Shown here: piece by piece, positions 24,315 to 63,923 of the stretch
Layout of the letters: every line of letters starts with the position of its first letter
How positions within the stretch are numbered: position 1 is the stretch's first letter
NCBI GenBank assembly: GCA_964469525.1
Contig: CAYXYU010000003.1
Span: forward strand, 33,185 to 97,184
Direction of reading: 5' to 3'
DNA length: 64,000 nucleotides
Origin: an uncultured Rickettsiales bacterium
GTDB lineage: Bacteria > Pseudomonadota > Alphaproteobacteria > Rickettsiales > SXRF01
Translations under genes and position numbers: made by a program
Notes under the pieces: model-generated
What the model saw: only the letters and a program-made list of their open reading frames with translations
The model's database searches: none
What the model was told of the DNA's origin: nothing

Positions 24315-24379
24315 TGTCATCCTGAGCGAGCGAAGCGAGTCGAAGGATCTTAAGATCCCTCGGCAAGCTCGGGATGACA
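24315..24379. repeat. TGTC-tagged compound palindromic repeat (family II)
   Basis: TGTCATCCTGAG...CGAAGGATCT-TA-AGATCCCTCG...CTCGGGATGACA; related copy at 60895. Confidence 0.88.
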
Positions 24380-24383
24380 GCTA

Positions 24384-25559
24384 GTGACCGCCATCCTTCG
24401 CAGCCGATTCCTCTCGCAGTTCGCCTGCCTGGGTGAACGTTGCGAGGATACGTGCTGCAAAGGCTGGTCGATGCAGGTCGATGCAGCGACCATAGCGCGC
24501 TACCAAAAGGAATCCCCCGAATTGATGGATGCCGTCGAAGCGGTGCAGGAGTCGCCGTGGATCATGCGCAAGGACAAGGCGAGCGGCTACTGCGTCAAAT
24601 TTGATGGCGGCCTGTGCGGCATCCATAAGCAGCATGGCGACCGCTTCCTCGGCGATGCCTGCCATTTCTACCCGCGCTCAACGCGGAAGCTGGGCGACCA
24701 GGTGGTGATGACGGCCACCCTGTCCTGCCCGGAGGTGGCGCGGCTGGCCCTGCGTACCCCGGATGCCTGTGCGCTGGAAGCGGCGGAGACCGACCGGCTG
24801 CCGCACAGCCTCAAGGACTACCTGCCGGAAACCATTCCGCCAGCGGAAGCGATCAGTATTCATCAGGCATTCCTGACGGCGGCGGACGACGCGTCATCGA
24901 CCGCCGAGCAGATTTTCCTGCGCATCGCCAGTGCCAGCCGGTCGATCGAGTTGATCGCCAAAAAAGACTGGGCGAAGGCGGTGCCGTTTTACCTGAAGAG
25001 CACCGATCTCTACGCGCCGCCCGCCGAGACGAACCCGGCCGATCCGTTCAACCTGCTGCACGCGCTGGCCGGGCTGATCGTCGCCTCTCACAAGCCGATG
25101 CCGGAGCGGCTGCAGCAGACGGTCTCCGAGATGGAGCAGGCGCTTTCCGTGACGCTCGACTGGCCGCAGGTGCTGATCCACACCGGCGATGACAGCCTGC
25201 CGAGCTACCGGTGCCTGCGCGCGCTGTGGGAGCAGGAGGGGGCGGTGCGTCACGCGGCGGTGCTGCGCCGCTGGCTGCAGATGCAGCTGGCGCTCTCACT
25301 GTATCCTTTCGCCGGGCTGGGAGAAAGCTTAAGCGACCGCATCGCCATTCTCGGCGTCCGGCTGGCCACGGTGAAGCTCGCCCTGATGTGCGCCTGCTCC
25401 ATCCACGGCGCGAAGCTGCCGGAGGATACGGTGGTGCGCATTGTGCAGAGCCTGTCGCGTTTCCTCGATCATCTCGGCGACCCGGCCTTTTCGCTGGCTA
25501 TATATAAAGAGACGGGCTGGATCACGGACGCACGGATGCGGGGGTTGCTGGCGGGGTAA
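24384..25559 (+). CDS. fliB: FliB-family flagellin lysine-N-methylase
   Basis: FACLGERCEDTCCKGW, CGIH, CHFYPR and LSCPEVARL Cys pattern; flagellar context. Confidence 0.82.
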   Translation: MTAILRSRFLSQFACLGERCEDTCCKGWSMQVDAATIARYQKESPELMDAVEAVQESPWIMRKDKASGYCVKFDGGLCGIHKQHGDRFLGDACHFYPRSTRKLGDQVVMTATLSCPEVARLALRTPDACALEAAETDRLPHSLKDYLPETIPPAEAISIHQAFLTAADDASSTAEQIFLRIASASRSIELIAKKDWAKAVPFYLKSTDLYAPPAETNPADPFNLLHALAGLIVASHKPMPERLQQTVSEMEQALSVTLDWPQVLIHTGDDSLPSYRCLRALWEQEGAVRHAAVLRRWLQMQLALSLYPFAGLGESLSDRIAILGVRLATVKLALMCACSIHGAKLPEDTVVRIVQSLSRFLDHLGDPAFSLAIYKETGWITDARMRGLLAG

Positions 25560-25566
25560 GGTTACC

Positions 25567-25662
25567 CGTCATCACCCGAATCGGCGTAGCCGATTTCTAG
25601 GGTGATCCAGTTTGAATATAAACCTGATGGCTTAGAATTCCTGCGGAATTCAGGCCGTGACA
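25567..25662. repeat. Inverted doublet of CGTC-tagged REP-like units (family I, doublet A)
   Basis: CGTC-ATCACCC-GAATCGGC-gta-GCCGATTTC-TA-GGGTGAT-CCAG, then a reverse degenerate copy at 25623-25662. Confidence 0.88.
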
Positions 25663-25673
25663 AAGGAGAGGAT

Positions 25674-25976
25674 ATGCGCTGGGAATGTATCGCAGTCTAT
25701 ATTATGACGAACATGCGAAATGGCACGCTCTATATCGGCGTCACCTCGAATCTCATCCGCAGAATCTTCGAACATAAAAGCAATGCCGTCGATGGCTTCA
25801 CCAAGAAGTACGGTCTGCACACGCTGGTGTATTACGAGCTCTTCGACAGCATGGAAGCCGCTATCCATCGGGAAAAGCGCCTCAAAAAATATACCCGGGA
25901 AGCCAAGCTGGCGCTTATTGAGAACATGAATCCCGAATGGAAGGATCTGTATGACTCCATAGCCGTCATGGCCTGA
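25674..25976 (+). CDS. Small stand-alone GIY-YIG nuclease (100 aa)
   Basis: AVYIMTN...TLYIGVTSNLIRRIFEH...YYE...AIHREKRLK...NPEWKDL; RBS aaaggagagg before the ATG at 25674. Confidence 0.9.
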   Translation: MRWECIAVYIMTNMRNGTLYIGVTSNLIRRIFEHKSNAVDGFTKKYGLHTLVYYELFDSMEAAIHREKRLKKYTREAKLALIENMNPEWKDLYDSIAVMA

Positions 25977-25978
25977 CT

Positions 25979-26076
25979 CGTCATCCCCTGAATTTGCGCA
26001 GCAAATTCTAAGGGGATCCAGTAGCAAAGAAAGGCTGGATGGCCTTAGAATCGCTTTCGCGATTCAGGCCATGACG
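25979..26076. repeat. Inverted doublet of CGTC-tagged REP-like units (family I, doublet B)
   Basis: CGTC-ATCCCCT-GAATTTGC-gca-GCAAATTC-TA-AGGGGAT-CCAG, a 13-nt spacer, then CTGG-ATGGCCT-TA-GAATCGC-tttc-GCGATTC-AGGCCAT-GACG. Confidence 0.92.
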
Positions 26077-26165
26077 AAAGAGAGTAAAAACACAAAATTT
26101 ATTTCGAATATTTATGGTTTAGTTTCAATATAATAACCACTAAATCCTAAGGAGGTTCCGCCGTA

Positions 26166-26181
26166 TTAACCGGTCATTAAC
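26166..26181 (+). promoter_or_regulatory. CtrA-binding box upstream of flagellin
   Basis: Exact TTAA-ccggtca-TTAAC (TTAA-N7-TTAAC). Confidence 0.7.
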
Positions 26182-26278
26182 CATTCTCCCCGATAATGGG
26201 AAGTAATGTGGAATAAATCCCACAGTGTGAAAGCATGTAGCTTTCGGTTCATAACAAGTCCAAGTAGGAGACGATCCC

Positions 26279-27958
26279 ATGCCTAATTCAATCAACACCA
26301 ACATTGCCGCGTATTTCGCGCAGGCAAACATCGCGACTGCTGCCAACCAGGCCGCATACGCGGTGGCCCGCCTCTCGAGCGGTAACCGCATCGTACTGGC
26401 GTCCGACGACGTCGCGGCGCTCGCCATCGGTACGTCACTCGCCACGCAGGTGAGCGCGCTGCGTACCGCGCAGACCAACGCCGCGCAGGGTAACAGCCTG
26501 CTGCAGGTGGCGGACGGCGCGCTGGCGCAGATCCAGAACATTCTGCAACGCCAGAAAGCGATCGCGCTGCAAGCCGGTTCAGGCTCGCTGACCGATACCG
26601 ACCGCGGGTTCTTGAACCAGGAATTCCAGGCGCTGTCGACGCAGATCGATAACCTGACCCGCAGCACGACCTTCAACGGTGTGAACCTGATCGACGGCTC
26701 GCTGTCGGGCGCCAACCCGCTGGTGTCGGAAGACGCGGCCCATACTGCGACGGTTACCGGCTTTACGGCGCAGACTGGTATCACCGCCGTGGCATTCACC
26801 GATAACGCTACCGGCACGCTCGGCGATACCACCTTTTATGGCGATTTGTCGGAAGGCGTGTTCGAAGTGCAGTTCGACGGCGTCACTGGCTACAATATTA
26901 CCTTCAACCTCAACGGTTCGACCTATGTCGGTGTGGAAGCCGACATCAGCGGTACCGGCACCAGCATCGTGCTGACCAACGGCGAAGGTACGCTTACCTT
27001 CACCGTATCGGCTGACCTGACCGGTACTTATGCCGCTTCGGCTGCCGGCGCTACCTTGTTTGAAACGGCGCTGACCAACAGCTTTGCCGCGGCGACCGCT
27101 TTCTCGAACCGTGCGCTACAGGATGCTAACATTACTGTCGGTGCAACGGAAGTGGAAGGCACCGCCATTGAAGCGGCAGATACCAACGGCACCTTACTTG
27201 AAGGTATGGATGGTTCTGACATTACACTCCGTTCCGAATTCTGGAACGGCATCAACGCTCCGACCATTGCCAACTTCCAGGCCATTGGTGATAGCGGCAT
27301 CGGTATCAAGTTCTCGGTCGAAGTTGACGGCCGGACTTACATCACCGGCGCGCTGACCGATGCCACCGATTTATCCGCTGATGATATTCTCGGTGACGGT
27401 GCAGGTGTGATGACTTTCTATCTCGATGGCGATTCGACGGCGAATCCCAACGAGTTCATTACGGTTGCTCTGGCTAACTCGGTTCAGATCATTGACGTGG
27501 ATACGGATGAGAATGTCGCGGCCTTCCTGACCGACCTGAACCAGGTGTTCGGGCGCACGGGCGGCGGTCTGACCTTCCAGCTCGGCACCACGTCGCAGGA
27601 TGCAGTCGGCGTTTCCATTGCCAGCGCTTCCACCTCGGCGATTTTCGTGGGCGCGTCGCTCAGCGTCGATACCCAGAACAATGCCGAAACCGCCAGTACG
27701 GCGGTGACGGTGGCGATTGCGACCGTCACGGCCCTGCGCTCCGGCGTGGGTGCGCTGGAATCGCAGTTCGCCTTCGCTTCCGCCGCGCTGCAGACCAGCG
27801 TCCAGAACCAGGACGCCGCCCGCAGCCAGCTGCTGGAAACGGACATCGCGACCGAGTCCACCAACTTCGCTACGCAGCAGGTCAAGCTGCAGGCCGGTAT
27901 CTCTGTGTTGGCCCAGGCCAACCAGCAGCTCCAGGCCCTGCTGAAGCTGATCGGCTAA
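26279..27958 (+). CDS. fliC: Flagellin (559 aa)
   Basis: SINTNIAA...RLSSGNRI...DDVAAL and DIATESTNFATQQVKLQAGISVLAQAN. Confidence 0.97.
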   Translation: MPNSINTNIAAYFAQANIATAANQAAYAVARLSSGNRIVLASDDVAALAIGTSLATQVSALRTAQTNAAQGNSLLQVADGALAQIQNILQRQKAIALQAGSGSLTDTDRGFLNQEFQALSTQIDNLTRSTTFNGVNLIDGSLSGANPLVSEDAAHTATVTGFTAQTGITAVAFTDNATGTLGDTTFYGDLSEGVFEVQFDGVTGYNITFNLNGSTYVGVEADISGTGTSIVLTNGEGTLTFTVSADLTGTYAASAAGATLFETALTNSFAAATAFSNRALQDANITVGATEVEGTAIEAADTNGTLLEGMDGSDITLRSEFWNGINAPTIANFQAIGDSGIGIKFSVEVDGRTYITGALTDATDLSADDILGDGAGVMTFYLDGDSTANPNEFITVALANSVQIIDVDTDENVAAFLTDLNQVFGRTGGGLTFQLGTTSQDAVGVSIASASTSAIFVGASLSVDTQNNAETASTAVTVAIATVTALRSGVGALESQFAFASAALQTSVQNQDAARSQLLETDIATESTNFATQQVKLQAGISVLAQANQQLQALLKLIG

Positions 27959-48931: not shown

Positions 48932-49030
48932 CGTCATCACCCGAATCGCGTCAGCGATTCTAGGGTGATCCAGTTTTTATATAGACTGGATTCCCCTAGA
49001 ATTTTGCTGTGCAAAATTCGGGGAATGACG
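48932..49030. repeat. Family I CGTC REP-like doublet C
   Basis: CGTC-ATCACCC-GAATCGC-gtca-GCGATTC-TA-GGGTGAT-CCAG, a 12-nt spacer, then CTGG-ATTCCCC-TA-GAATTTTGC-tgt-GCAAAATTC-GGGGAAT-GACG. Confidence 0.92.
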
Positions 49031-49065
49031 GATTATCACTTACCACTCGCCACGGGGAGTATCGT

Positions 49066-49626
49066 ATGAGCTGGCAGAAGAATCTCCCCAACTACCTGAC
49101 CTATTTCCGCATCGGCGTCATTCCCGCGCTGATTGTCGTTGTGTTTTTCTTCGAGGGAAGGTGGAGCGACTACGCGGCGGCGGCGCTGTTCCTGCTGGCT
49201 TCCGTCACCGACTGGCTCGATGGCTATATTGCCCGCCTGCTCAAGGCGCAGTCAAACCTGGGCCGGTTTCTCGACCCGATCGCCGACAAGCTGCTGGTGG
49301 CTACGGCGCTGCTGCTGCTGGTCTATAACGGCCGCGCCGACCTGCTGCCCGCCATCGCCATCGTTTGCCGTGAAATCCTGGTGTCTGGCCTACGCGAGTT
49401 CCTGGCTGAGCTGCGCGTCAGCATGCCGGTCTCCAAACTCGCCAAGGTCAAGACGGCGGCACAGATGGTGGCGATCCTGTTCCTGCTGCTCGGACCTGCA
49501 GGATTCTACGGCATACCGACGCAGCCCATCGGCAACTGGCTGCTGTGGGTGGCGGCGCTGTTGACGCTGATTACCGGCTACGCCTACCTCAAGACCGGCC
49601 TCAAGCACATGACCGAATCGGCGTAG
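49066..49626 (+). CDS. pgsA: CDP-diacylglycerol--glycerol-3-phosphate phosphatidyltransferase
   Basis: LPNYLT, TDWLDGYIAR, GRFLDPIADK and REILVSGLRE. Confidence 0.95.
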   Translation: MSWQKNLPNYLTYFRIGVIPALIVVVFFFEGRWSDYAAAALFLLASVTDWLDGYIARLLKAQSNLGRFLDPIADKLLVATALLLLVYNGRADLLPAIAIVCREILVSGLREFLAELRVSMPVSKLAKVKTAAQMVAILFLLLGPAGFYGIPTQPIGNWLLWVAALLTLITGYAYLKTGLKHMTESA

Positions 49627-49882: not shown

Positions 49883-49987
49883 CGTCATCGCCCGAACTGC
49901 CAAAGGCAATTCTAGGACGATCCAACTTCAACGGATGGAGATGGATTCCCCTAGAATTTTTGCTCGCGCAAAAATTCGGGGATGACG
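49883..49987. repeat. Family I CGTC REP-like doublet D
   Basis: CGTC-ATCGCCC-GAACTGCC-aaa-GGCAATTC-TA-GGACGAT-CCAA ... TGG-ATTCCCC-TA-GAATTTTTGC-tcgc-GCAAAAATTC-GGGGAT-GACG. Confidence 0.88.
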
Positions 49988-59125: not shown

Positions 59126-59153
59126 TGTCATCCCCGCGAAGGCGGGGATGACA
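59126..59153. repeat. TGTC-tagged palindrome (family III)
   Basis: TGTCATCCCCGC-gaag-GCGGGGATGACA. Confidence 0.85.
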
Positions 59154-62982: not shown

Positions 62983-63010
62983 TGTCATTCCCGCGAAGGC
63001 GGGAATCCAG
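62983..63010 (+). repeat. Family III REP-like unit, forward
   Basis: TGTC-ATTCCCGC-gaag-GCGGGAAT-CCAG. Confidence 0.9.
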
Positions 63011-63013
63011 TCC

Positions 63014-63835
63014 TTATGAGAGACGAAAATTTAATTCCCGCAGAGCCATTGTTTCCATCAGACTTTCTTCTGAATCAAACAATGAAAAAGCATTTAAATT
63101 GTAATCATCAAGTATTTTTAGAACTTTTGTGCGCTCGTTCCATGGAATAACAAATTTCCAGCAAATATCTTGATTGGATTTATTGCGACAAAGAACTTCA
63201 TCATGAGAAACAAAGTACCATTCTTTGTTTTTAAAGAGAGTGCAAATTGTATAACTGCCCTGTTGAAGAAAATGTCTTCTATGCCTCTTTGAGTAGGGTC
63301 CCCAACCAGTAATACGCGCTTCATTTCCTGACCATGTTTTGCCCCCTTCCCAATATTCACAAAATACATATATGGCGACCTTATCTTCTTTGGGTGATAC
63401 GGGGGATCTAAATGCAAAATACGCTGCTACGTAAGGAGATTTTGACCAGTCAAGTAATGGGGAAGGAAATCCGTGATGCCGCAGATAAATCAGATAACTA
63501 TATGCATCATGTCCCCATTTTTTCGTAACATATCCATCAGAATCAGCAGCTTGTTTATGGAACTCCTCTCGTGTAGGTAAGTGCCATCTCTTTCCGGTAA
63601 ATTCTTCTATTTGATCCTGCACCCTTGAAATCAAACCGTAATATCCAGAGAATGAGACATCCTGACTTGTATTTCGTTCGAGGGTTGTAATTAATGGAAA
63701 ATTGGCATTACTGTGTCCACGAAACAGTAAATTCGACACTGATTTCTTTTCCTCGGCAAGTTTATTACGCTGTGTGCGAAGTTCTGCCAACTTCGTCTCG
63801 AATTCTTCCCAATTCTTACAATCTATTTGTTCCAA
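63014..63835 (-). CDS. FRG domain protein
   Basis: LLFRGH...TTLER and LRHHGFPSPLLDWSKSPYVAAYFA; TTG start after GGAG; markedly AT-rich. Confidence 0.9.
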   Translation of the reverse strand: MEQIDCKNWEEFETKLAELRTQRNKLAEEKKSVSNLLFRGHSNANFPLITTLERNTSQDVSFSGYYGLISRVQDQIEEFTGKRWHLPTREEFHKQAADSDGYVTKKWGHDAYSYLIYLRHHGFPSPLLDWSKSPYVAAYFAFRSPVSPKEDKVAIYVFCEYWEGGKTWSGNEARITGWGPYSKRHRRHFLQQGSYTICTLFKNKEWYFVSHDEVLCRNKSNQDICWKFVIPWNERTKVLKILDDYNLNAFSLFDSEESLMETMALRELNFRLS

Positions 63836-63859
63836 TCTGGTTCTCCAGATTATGATGTA

Positions 63860-63923
63860 CTGGATTCCCGCCTGCGCGGGAATGACGAAGGAACCCGGAC
63901 CCCGCAACAAGTGCGGGGATGAG
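63860..63923 (-). repeat. Two family III REP-like units, reverse
   Basis: CTGG-ATTCCCGC-ctgc-GCGGGAAT-GACG (63860-63887) and ccgg-acccc-gc-aacaagt-gc-ggggat-gagg (63895-63923). Confidence 0.85.

Follow-up and report, generated by a model that had tools for sequence, protein, structure and literature searches.

Why does a gene for a small GIY-YIG nuclease sit alone between two flagellar genes with inverted hairpins on either side, and do nuclease and hairpins belong together? The locus lies in a 64-kb stretch of DNA from an uncultured Rickettsiales bacterium (contig CAYXYU010000003.1), which is referred to below as the window. We found that the nuclease is a member of the Ssn family, for which a nuclease-repeat partnership was already published in 2025, and that positions 25567-26076 very probably form an Ssn/SRM module, that is, the gene ssn together with four cognate hairpins, one inverted doublet on each side. 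A preliminary description of this DNA had reported a 100-aa GIY-YIG gene flanked by inverted hairpin pairs at 25567-25662 and 25979-26076, which was confirmed with small corrections; one unit (unit B) is degenerate. It had also placed the gene alone between fliB and fliC, and profile matches bear this out, with fliB upstream and a flagellin gene downstream. Its third observation, that the ssn stop codon lies in a truncated unit end, held as well: the 13 nt concerned match the head of unit D, read on the opposite strand, at 13 of 13 positions. The parts of the module are the following (bit scores refer to covariance model R1, described below).

25567 to 25610, plus strand: hairpin unit A, left edge of the module; 55.5 bits; -12.1 kcal/mol, z -5.6
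25624 to 25662, minus strand: hairpin unit B, degenerate, its head facing the ssn start; 40.2 bits; -6.5 kcal/mol, z -2.7
25663 to 25671, plus strand: ribosome-binding site of ssn, AAGGAGAGG, recognised from the sequence, inside a purine-rich flank that follows the head of reverse unit B
25674 to 25976, plus strand: ssn, ATG to TGA, 100 aa, an intact single-domain GIY-YIG nuclease of the Ssn family
25964 to 25976, plus strand: truncated forward unit head CGTCATGGCCTGA, which codes for V-M-A and the stop of ssn
25979 to 26021, plus strand: hairpin unit C, its head 2 nt past the ssn stop; 66.2 bits; -12.3 kcal/mol, z -5.7
26035 to 26076, minus strand: hairpin unit D, right edge of the module; 59.8 bits; -13.9 kcal/mol, z -5.8

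The Ssn family was described by Chenal et al. (Nat Commun 16:2388, 2025; PMC11893778) as single-domain proteins of about 94 aa that correspond to CDD cd10448 (GIY-YIG_unchar_3), with E < 1e-10 to SsnA as the criterion of membership. We used the Neisseria gonorrhoeae ortholog as the homology reference, standing in for N. meningitidis SsnA. The window Ssn was 53% identical to this 94-aa protein (locus L100, 1492-1773) over 90 aa without gaps (E 2e-36), and tblastn in a 7.3-Gb database gave E 2e-25. The ortholog carries Y6, Y17 and E64, the residues that were mutated in N. meningitidis SsnA (PMC11893778). Residues Y9, Y20 and E67 of the window protein align to them with the same spacing and are invariant in 40 family members. 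Residues 7-76 match Pfam GIY-YIG (PF01541, E 2.8e-14) and all other domains fell below the cutoff; the only NCBIfam match was to TIGR01453, below its threshold. An AlphaFold2 model is a single compact domain (pLDDT 91.9) that is nearest to the GIY-YIG folds of UPF0213 (1ZG2, 1YWL), Slx1 and UvrC, and the relation to UPF0213 is weak (profile E 3e-4, TM about 0.55). No Ssn structure was found in the PDB, and no phage homologs of the window nuclease were found. The exact window protein was recovered only on short Logan metagenome contigs, which keep the fliB-ssn-fliC context. Judged by CtaD, the host is an uncultured alphaproteobacterium, the closest named relatives being MAGs that carry the label Alphaproteobacteria or Rickettsiales (80-85% identity).

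The published biochemistry gives a precise expectation of what a cognate hairpin should look like. SsnA of Neisseria binds the oriented hairpin NTS (CGTCATTCCCGCGMAVGCGGGAATCYRG) as single-stranded DNA (ssDNA) only, its cut falling a few nt to the 5' side; cutting is governed by the GTC ahead of the stem and binding by the C past it, and the form of the motif that is bound by SsnA homologs is a CGTC...CYRG hairpin (PMC11893778). Strand-specific cleavage of ssDNA near their own motifs was demonstrated for the homologs of N. meningitidis, N. elongata, N. wadsworthii and Wolbachia, and SRM motifs were reported near 71% of homologs, on both sides in 42%, while 81% of the genomes with more than 200 motifs carry ssn (PMC11893778). 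The preliminary description had assumed that the CGTC-tagged repetitive extragenic palindromes (REPs) have no dedicated partner. This is true of the study of Di Nocera et al. (2013; PMC3733652), in which no enzyme gene was associated with CGTC REPs, but the premise is out of date because the Ssn-CGTC partnership has since been published (PMC11893778). Searches of the literature for GIY-YIG together with REP, REPIN or RAYT found no paper under those terms, and the Ssn paper surfaced under dRS3, a Neisseria repeat; among the papers citing Chenal et al. 2025 we found only work on I-TevI engineering.

Units A, C and D are two-tier DNA hairpins, and none of 200 shuffled sequences folded as well. 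Each follows one plan: the head CGTC, a 7-bp outer stem that starts with AT, an inner GAAT..ATTC stem-loop, a TA bulge, the closing stem and the tail CCAG. The inner stem has 7-9 bp and the loop 3-7 nt; the whole unit, a lineage-specific form, measures 42-47 nt, about 43 as a rule. Unit B has decayed, with TGTCAC as its head and one stem base gone. In the window the head motif GTCAYNNNCNGAAT occurs 6 times where 0.31 are expected, and the inner-hairpin motif 7 times where 0.34 are expected. Covariance model R1 was built from 17 two-tier units. In their alignment 93.6% of the cells are paired, 8 of 15 pairs have changed on both sides, and 47 cells are compensatory, compared with 14.7 in shuffles, none of 500 shuffles equalling that figure; when the partner column was shifted by one, the covariation signal was lost. 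Conservation in the 17 units is confined to the GTC of the head, the AT pairs that close the stem, GAAT/ATTC at the base of the inner stem, the bulge TA and the C past the stem, and the rest varies freely. No unit departs from G2 or T3, and conservation at C4 and at the first C of the tail (C41, counting as in unit A) is 90% or more. The ssn hairpins thus keep both of the published recognition determinants.

Applied to all 64 kb, model R1 detected exactly eight units, which form four doublets, all with heads outward. Two of the doublets are those of the ssn module and two, of the same extended (two-tier) type, enclose no gene:

48932 to 49030: doublet without gene, upstream of a pgsA-like open reading frame (ORF); unit 48932-48973 on the plus strand (58.7 bits) and unit 48986-49030 on the minus strand (60.3 bits)
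49883 to 49987: doublet without gene, downstream of the same ORF; unit 49883-49925 on the plus strand (57.6 bits) and unit 49941-49987 on the minus strand (45.4 bits)

The pgsA-like housekeeping ORF (49009-49626) is therefore itself bracketed by two extended doublets, a layout of hairpins around one gene that is also known from the NTS of Neisseria. Because this ORF is bracketed too, local bracketing does not prove a special link between ssn and the hairpins, and the question had to be put to other genomes.

The window protein has more than 8000 homologs. We examined 80 homolog loci, whose proteins are 54-66% identical to it and which come from many phyla, among them alpha-, beta-, gamma- and deltaproteobacteria, Planctomycetota, Verrucomicrobiota, Chloroflexota, Patescibacteria, Cyanobacteria and Acidobacteriota. 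The detector used to call hairpins was strict, requiring GTCA and then a 7-bp inverted stem without mismatch (about 5 false matches per 64 kb), a detector allowing one stem mismatch having been dropped after it gave 49 matches in the window, mostly false. A forward hairpin lies at most 80 nt upstream of the start in 40 of the 80 loci and a reverse hairpin at most 80 nt downstream of the stop in 42, and 65 have at least one gene-adjacent hairpin. The background more than 500 nt away is 0.06-0.085 hairpins per kb per strand, from which about 0.4-0.65 loci are expected, so that within 80 nt of a homolog CGTC hairpins are about 100-fold enriched over the flanks. Most loci have inverted hairpins, heads outward, around ssn; in the commonest geometry the CTGG tail follows immediately past the stop codon and the upstream hairpin ends 14-19 nt before the start. 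An exact Neisseria NTS stands beside the gene in 10 loci.

The type of hairpin also follows the protein. In 45 of 69 cases a protein and its nearest neighbour agree in hairpin type, compared with 19.9 expected and a maximum of 34 in 2000 permutations, and for all five proteins with two-tier hairpins the nearest neighbour has them as well. Matches to R1 above 50 bits were found only in the window, in L015 (a Micavibrio metagenome-assembled genome, MAG) and in three further loci (L086, L087 and L088), and in these four loci every R1 match adjoins ssn. The preliminary description had suggested that the nuclease may be cognate to the surrounding hairpins, and had proposed testing homologs for enrichment of hairpins over background and for co-segregation of stem subtype with nuclease phylogeny. 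Enrichment was found, as was co-segregation of hairpin type with protein similarity, and with the published biochemistry of the family they strongly uphold that suggestion. The link between gene and hairpins is not due to chance, and it is the cross-genome test that is decisive. PLSDB, a plasmid database, gave matches of Ssn from Rhizobium, Sphingobium, Sinorhizobium, Azospirillum and Neisseria; species of the last four genera are among the carriers of CGTC REPs listed by Di Nocera et al. (PMC3733652).

A whole doublet on each side, with heads toward the gene, is a minority arrangement: a reverse hairpin upstream was seen in 7 of the 80 loci and a forward hairpin downstream in 18. The doublet-ssn-doublet layout is nevertheless not new. 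It occurs with two-tier hairpins in L086 and with short CGTC hairpins in Azospirillum lipoferum 4B, and the orientation is that of the gonococcal ssnA locus, in which a reverse NTS lies about 105 nt before the start and the head of a forward NTS 2 nt past the stop, the same distance as in the window. (This locus, L100 1359-1805, was taken from N. gonorrhoeae NZ_CP119140.1, a 2.17-Mb chromosome filed as a plasmid in PLSDB.) In two organisms ssn was seen between sufB and sufC (L087, 10001-10372; L101, 395-688, on A. lipoferum 4B plasmid AZO_p3). In two proteins, P0020 (L086, 1630-1956) and P0052 (L087, 10001-10372), the called N-terminus runs through the upstream reverse hairpin, and the N-terminal peptide signature NSGDD is the translation of ...GAATTCGGGNGATGAC; signatures of this type could help to spot hairpin-adjacent ssn genes in protein databases.

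How did the module come to lie in the flagellar cluster? The genes next to it, all on the same strand as ssn, belong to the order flgK-flgL-fliW-fliB-[ssn]-fliC-flaG-fliD, and the immediate neighbours are:

24384 to 25559, plus strand: fliB, flagellin lysine-N-methylase (NCBIfam NF038110 Lys_methyl_FliB, E 1.5e-41; from the ORF list)
26077 to 26278, plus strand: native upstream region and leader of fliC, retained 3' of the insertion
26279 to 27958: flagellin gene fliC, downstream neighbour of ssn

A scan of metagenomes with FliB gave relatives with 49-66% FliB identity. Four of them (L089, L090, L091 and L098) keep the order fliW-fliB-fliC, and the two longer ones also include flgK and flgL, together with flaG-fliD (L089) or the rest of fliC (L098). 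Their fliB-fliC spacers, of 148-205 nt, contain neither a GIY-YIG gene nor hairpins, which is the empty site that the preliminary description had proposed to look for in relatives. The spacer of the window has 720 nt, and without the 510 nt of 25567-26076 it would have 209 nt, fliC leader included; the module starts 7 nt after the fliB stop codon. Since the module is absent from the spacer in the four relatives, we conclude from the comparison of sequences that it is an insertion into the fliB-fliC spacer. The GC content of ssn (49.5%) is 9 points lower than that of the window (58.6%). The outer edges of the module are inverted (CGTCAT...ATGACG), and no target-site duplication or direct repeat was found at its edges, which read GGTTACC/CGTC ... 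GACG/AAAGAGAG with slashes at the borders. Close homologs of ssn lie at unrelated sites, namely in the intervals adh-type gene/aroC, trbC/yjgF and hemCD/tsaD and within a suf operon.

A deltaproteobacterial MAG, CAVWTD01, gives a view of ssn as a multi-copy element. It holds three copies of 486-513 bp that are about 95% identical, with sharp ends and unrelated flanks:

L012, 9888 to 10373: ssn element copy
L028, 9888 to 10373: ssn element copy
L029, 9888 to 10400: ssn element copy

The copies end in an outer inverted repeat, ATAAGCGCTAACTTAA ... TTAAGTTAGCGCTTAT, which lies outside the hairpins and was also found around ssn in L006, L056 and L058, from other phyla. The short direct repeats that flank them, GGGG(C/T)TGG(A/G)(A/G)(G/C)C, resemble each other from locus to locus and may represent either a target that is preferred or a portion of the element itself. 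An inner hairpin is formed in L029 by 27 nt inserted into the loop of the downstream hairpin.

The ribosome-binding site AAGGAGAGG ends 2 nt before the ssn ATG. The last 13 bases of the gene, CGTCATGGCCTGA, are the reverse complement of 26064-26076, in the head of unit D, at 13 of 13 positions, and they add residues that make the C-terminus 2-3 residues longer than in most of the family. The purine-rich flank behind a reverse-unit head recurs after unit D as a direct repeat (23 nt at 87%). Because the flank repeats there, a second ssn copy after unit D was considered, but no second copy or remnant was found in the window, and tblastn with 40 family members finds one gene. Comparable purine-rich flanks occur in L086, L088 and L101, and in L086 and L088 they precede the next gene. 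Rfam gave no matches in 25300-26400, the fliB-ssn interval has no sigma-70-like promoter, and a search for terminators gave none that convinces.

Hairpins of other kinds occur elsewhere in the window. Short canonical CGTC hairpins with heads outward lie at 62983-63010 on the plus strand (TGTCATTCCCGCGAAGGCGGGAATCCAG) and at 63860-63887 on the minus strand, the latter an exact match to the definition of the Neisseria NTS. The AT-rich stretch between 62983 and 63887 (38.5% GC) contains, on the reverse strand, an ORF (about 63017-63859) in which Pfam recognises an FRG domain (2.8e-19) and which fits the PADLOC defence candidate PDC-S15 (3.5e-34), so that a second type of hairpin in the same genome brackets what is likely a foreign defence gene. 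A third inverted doublet with GTCAT heads, which model R1 for extended units does not detect, lies in the fliW-fliB spacer at 24315-24379 (TGTCATCCTGAGCGAGCGAAGCGAGTCGAAGGATC, TTAA, GATCCCTCGGCAAGCTCGGGATGACA); with it in that spacer, fliB too would be bracketed by hairpin doublets. A perfect double-headed palindrome, TGTCATCCCCGCGAAGGCGGGGATGACA, with a GTCAT head at both ends, was seen at 59126-59153 between ctaD and the next ORF. An element of the fliC leader just 5' of the start codon, GTGAAAGCATGTAGCTTTC ... CCAAGTAGGAGA, is conserved in the window and in L089, L090 and L091; with fliW adjacent, it resembles a site for translational control of the CsrA/FliW type.

By analogy with the four biochemically characterised homologs, a mechanism can be proposed for the window protein. 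Ssn would act only on ssDNA, such as is exposed during replication, repair, conjugation or transformation, and would bind the folded hairpin on the CGTC...CCAG strand. Recognition would need the GTC right before the stem and the C right past it, and the strand would be hydrolysed a few bases 5' of the CGTC head through Y9, Y20 and E67. On the top strand this predicts cuts immediately left of unit A and within the final codons of ssn; those predicted on the bottom strand lie in the leader of ssn and directly to the right of unit D.

Several observations weigh against reading the segment as an Ssn module with four cognate hairpins, or limit that reading. The published SRM motif, HGTCWYN(0-2)YYVSBRHN(0-5)WNVSBRGN(0-2)RNCYNB, has just two matches in the window, 62983-63010 and 63860-63887, and passes over all eight extended units, since their inner stem-loop is longer than the loop that it allows; the motif is a search heuristic and not a biological definition. 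The stems differ greatly between the window units, while SsnA of Neisseria lost its activity when the stem sequence was altered with the hairpin shape kept (PMC11893778). With stems that vary so widely, all units could be substrates only under recognition rules unlike those of that enzyme. Of the unit at the ssn stop only a 13-nt stump is left, and unit B has decayed. Bracketing is not specific to ssn, as the pgsA-like ORF, the FRG-domain gene and probably fliB are bracketed by hairpins too. The relatives with the empty site are distant, with FliB only 49-66% identical. Finally, the activity of the window Ssn and the role of the two-tier hairpins as its substrates are predicted from the characterised homologs.

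What the module does is a separate question, for which two answers are live options. One, modelled on Neisseria, is that Ssn restricts or modulates motif-bearing ssDNA that enters the cell or recombines; the other is self-propagation of the module and of the gene-less doublets through host repair of nicks. According to the second, ssn and its hairpins would be self-propagating modules and the engine of the CGTC-tagged REPs, nicks at the heads in transiently single-stranded DNA leading by way of host replication or repair to new doublets and, more rarely, new cassettes, a proposal that we make tentatively. Chenal et al. noted the layout resembling an insertion sequence (IS) and offered the spreading of repeats as a hypothesis only (PMC11893778). 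The insertion between fliB and fliC, the three-copy element of CAVWTD01, the base-precise geometry and the co-variation of hairpin type with protein are all compatible with self-propagation. A stricter version, a CGTC counterpart of the RAYT systems along the lines of the REPtron-like system raised in the preliminary description, in which the nuclease nicks the heads and moves both doublets and gene cassette, and in which gene-less doublets are non-autonomous as REPINs are for RAYTs, strikes us as possible but rather doubtful. In its favour are the IS-like layout of inverted, heads-outward hairpins around the gene in most loci, the insertion of the module in the window with close homologs at unrelated loci, the nearly identical elements in one MAG, the agreement of hairpin type with protein and the frequent presence of ssn in motif-rich genomes. 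The resemblance to RAYT/REPIN systems is also real in layout, since both have one small nuclease gene bracketed by inverted copies of a dispersed hairpin repeat that occurs mostly as doublets. RAYTs, in contrast, are HUH Y1 relatives that cleave and rejoin through a covalent tyrosine and act on a GTAG tag, whereas the window has a hydrolytic GIY-YIG enzyme of another fold and a CGTC/TGTC tag. GIY-YIG enzymes as a superfamily hydrolyse DNA, form no covalent intermediate and cannot rejoin strands. Any spreading must therefore go through host replication or repair of nicks, and a RAYT-like mechanism for the window nuclease is argued against; in that case Ssn would take the part of RAYT for the CGTC REPs by hydrolytic nick-and-repair, not by transposase chemistry, which we regard as less likely than not. 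The window lacks a target-site duplication at the module edges and has a single copy of ssn. Because the outer repeat of the MAG element differs from the hairpins, another enzyme could move that element. The characterised Ssn proteins cut ssDNA only, and only the forward motif strand (PMC11893778), so that an inverted pair offers one cut per strand. IS200/IS605 TnpA likewise reads imperfect hairpins on ssDNA and cuts a short distance 5' of them, but it differs in fold and chemistry, and both of its ends can be cut on one strand, whereas the inverted units of the window would be cut on opposite strands.

The only demonstrated role of the family is the restriction of transforming DNA: a knockout of ssnA in N. 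meningitidis raised transformation 5-fold, for NTS-bearing DNA only (PMC11893778). It is thus conceivable, though at less than even odds in our judgement, that the window Ssn is a domesticated control of ssDNA restriction or recombination as in Neisseria, in which pairs of motifs limit gene exchange and the hairpins at ssn are part of the same marking or serve autoregulation. The pairs of hairpins around the pgsA-like ORF, the FRG/PDC-S15 gene, ssn and probably fliB, which resemble the NTS-gene-NTS order of Neisseria, fit this role. It leaves unexplained, however, the joint insertion of gene and hairpins at differing loci and the atypical GC content of ssn; no PADLOC model matches the protein. 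We rate spreading and a Neisseria-like host role about the same, and both could hold. It is improbable, by comparison, that ssn is a homing gene, a selfish passenger which repair copies in after cuts at hairpins or between them, the hairpins themselves spreading or persisting by other means. Such a gene would account for the position of ssn, mostly at the place where a gene-less doublet has its short spacer; REPs are known targets of several IS families, such as ISPpu9 (PMC8450116), and the closest structural and sequence relatives of the window protein include GIY-YIG domains of homing-endonuclease type (the sub-threshold TIGR01453). Homing nevertheless requires a double-strand break and long flanking homology, whereas the Ssn family cuts ssDNA only and the homology of the flanks consists of hairpins of 28-45 nt. 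In L015, L086, L087 and L088, moreover, all two-tier hairpins stand beside ssn across 7-20 kb, and since they all adjoin the gene this is not the pattern of a gene that samples a large pre-existing pool of targets. The GIY-YIG core is shared with homing endonucleases of the I-TevI type, with Slx1 and with UPF0213 (YhbQ-like) proteins, but the window Ssn has no added DNA-binding domain and is chromosomal and intergenic, not in an intron or phage, and Slx1 acts on branched double-stranded DNA with a partner protein. Last, REPs might simply accumulate in the intergenic space made by a small horizontally acquired gene, a notion suggested by the hairpins around other window genes. Against this coincidence, to which we give practically no weight, stand the base-precise enrichment of about 100-fold over 80 loci from many phyla, the concordance of hairpin type with protein and the published biochemistry of the family (PMC11893778); the enrichment across genomes and the type concordance rule it out.

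With the Ssn family the module shares a single domain of about 95-100 aa with the Y/Y/E residues kept, oriented CGTC hairpins with an AT-closed stem and a C past the stem, and, with the Neisseria ssnA locus, heads toward the gene and a forward unit 2 nt past the stop. It is unlike the family in that its hairpins are two-tier (a 7-bp outer stem, a TA bulge and a 7-9-bp inner GAAT/ATTC stem, 42-47 nt in all), in that stems vary widely with compensatory changes and in having whole doublets on both sides. The CGTC-tagged REPs of Di Nocera et al. (CGTC-1 to -4; PMC3733652) have the same CGTC/TGTC head, AT stem start and CCA(G) tail and form mostly head-out inverted dimers in alphaproteobacterial hosts, but their stems have 8-9 bp and their loops 4-5 nt, where the window units have a second stem-loop of about 24 nt instead. 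The short units at 62983 and 63860 fit the stem and loop dimensions of CGTC-1 to -4.

Specific to the window are, first, its two-tier hairpins, which escape the SRM motif, and second, the insertion of the module into a flagellar spacer that is conserved in relatives. Cognate hairpins with an inner stem-loop thus form a whole class that the published motif overlooks. Because about 18% of the gene-flanking hairpins in the 80 loci have long loops, of 23-42 nt, some Ssn genes that were counted as motif-less probably have a motif. A nuclease and hairpin pair with stem rules unlike those of Neisseria is of interest for ssDNA-cutting tools of new specificity, and the insertion in the flagellar spacer, together with the multi-copy ssn elements, provides material on whether these nucleases spread the CGTC REPs, a question that has stood since 2013.

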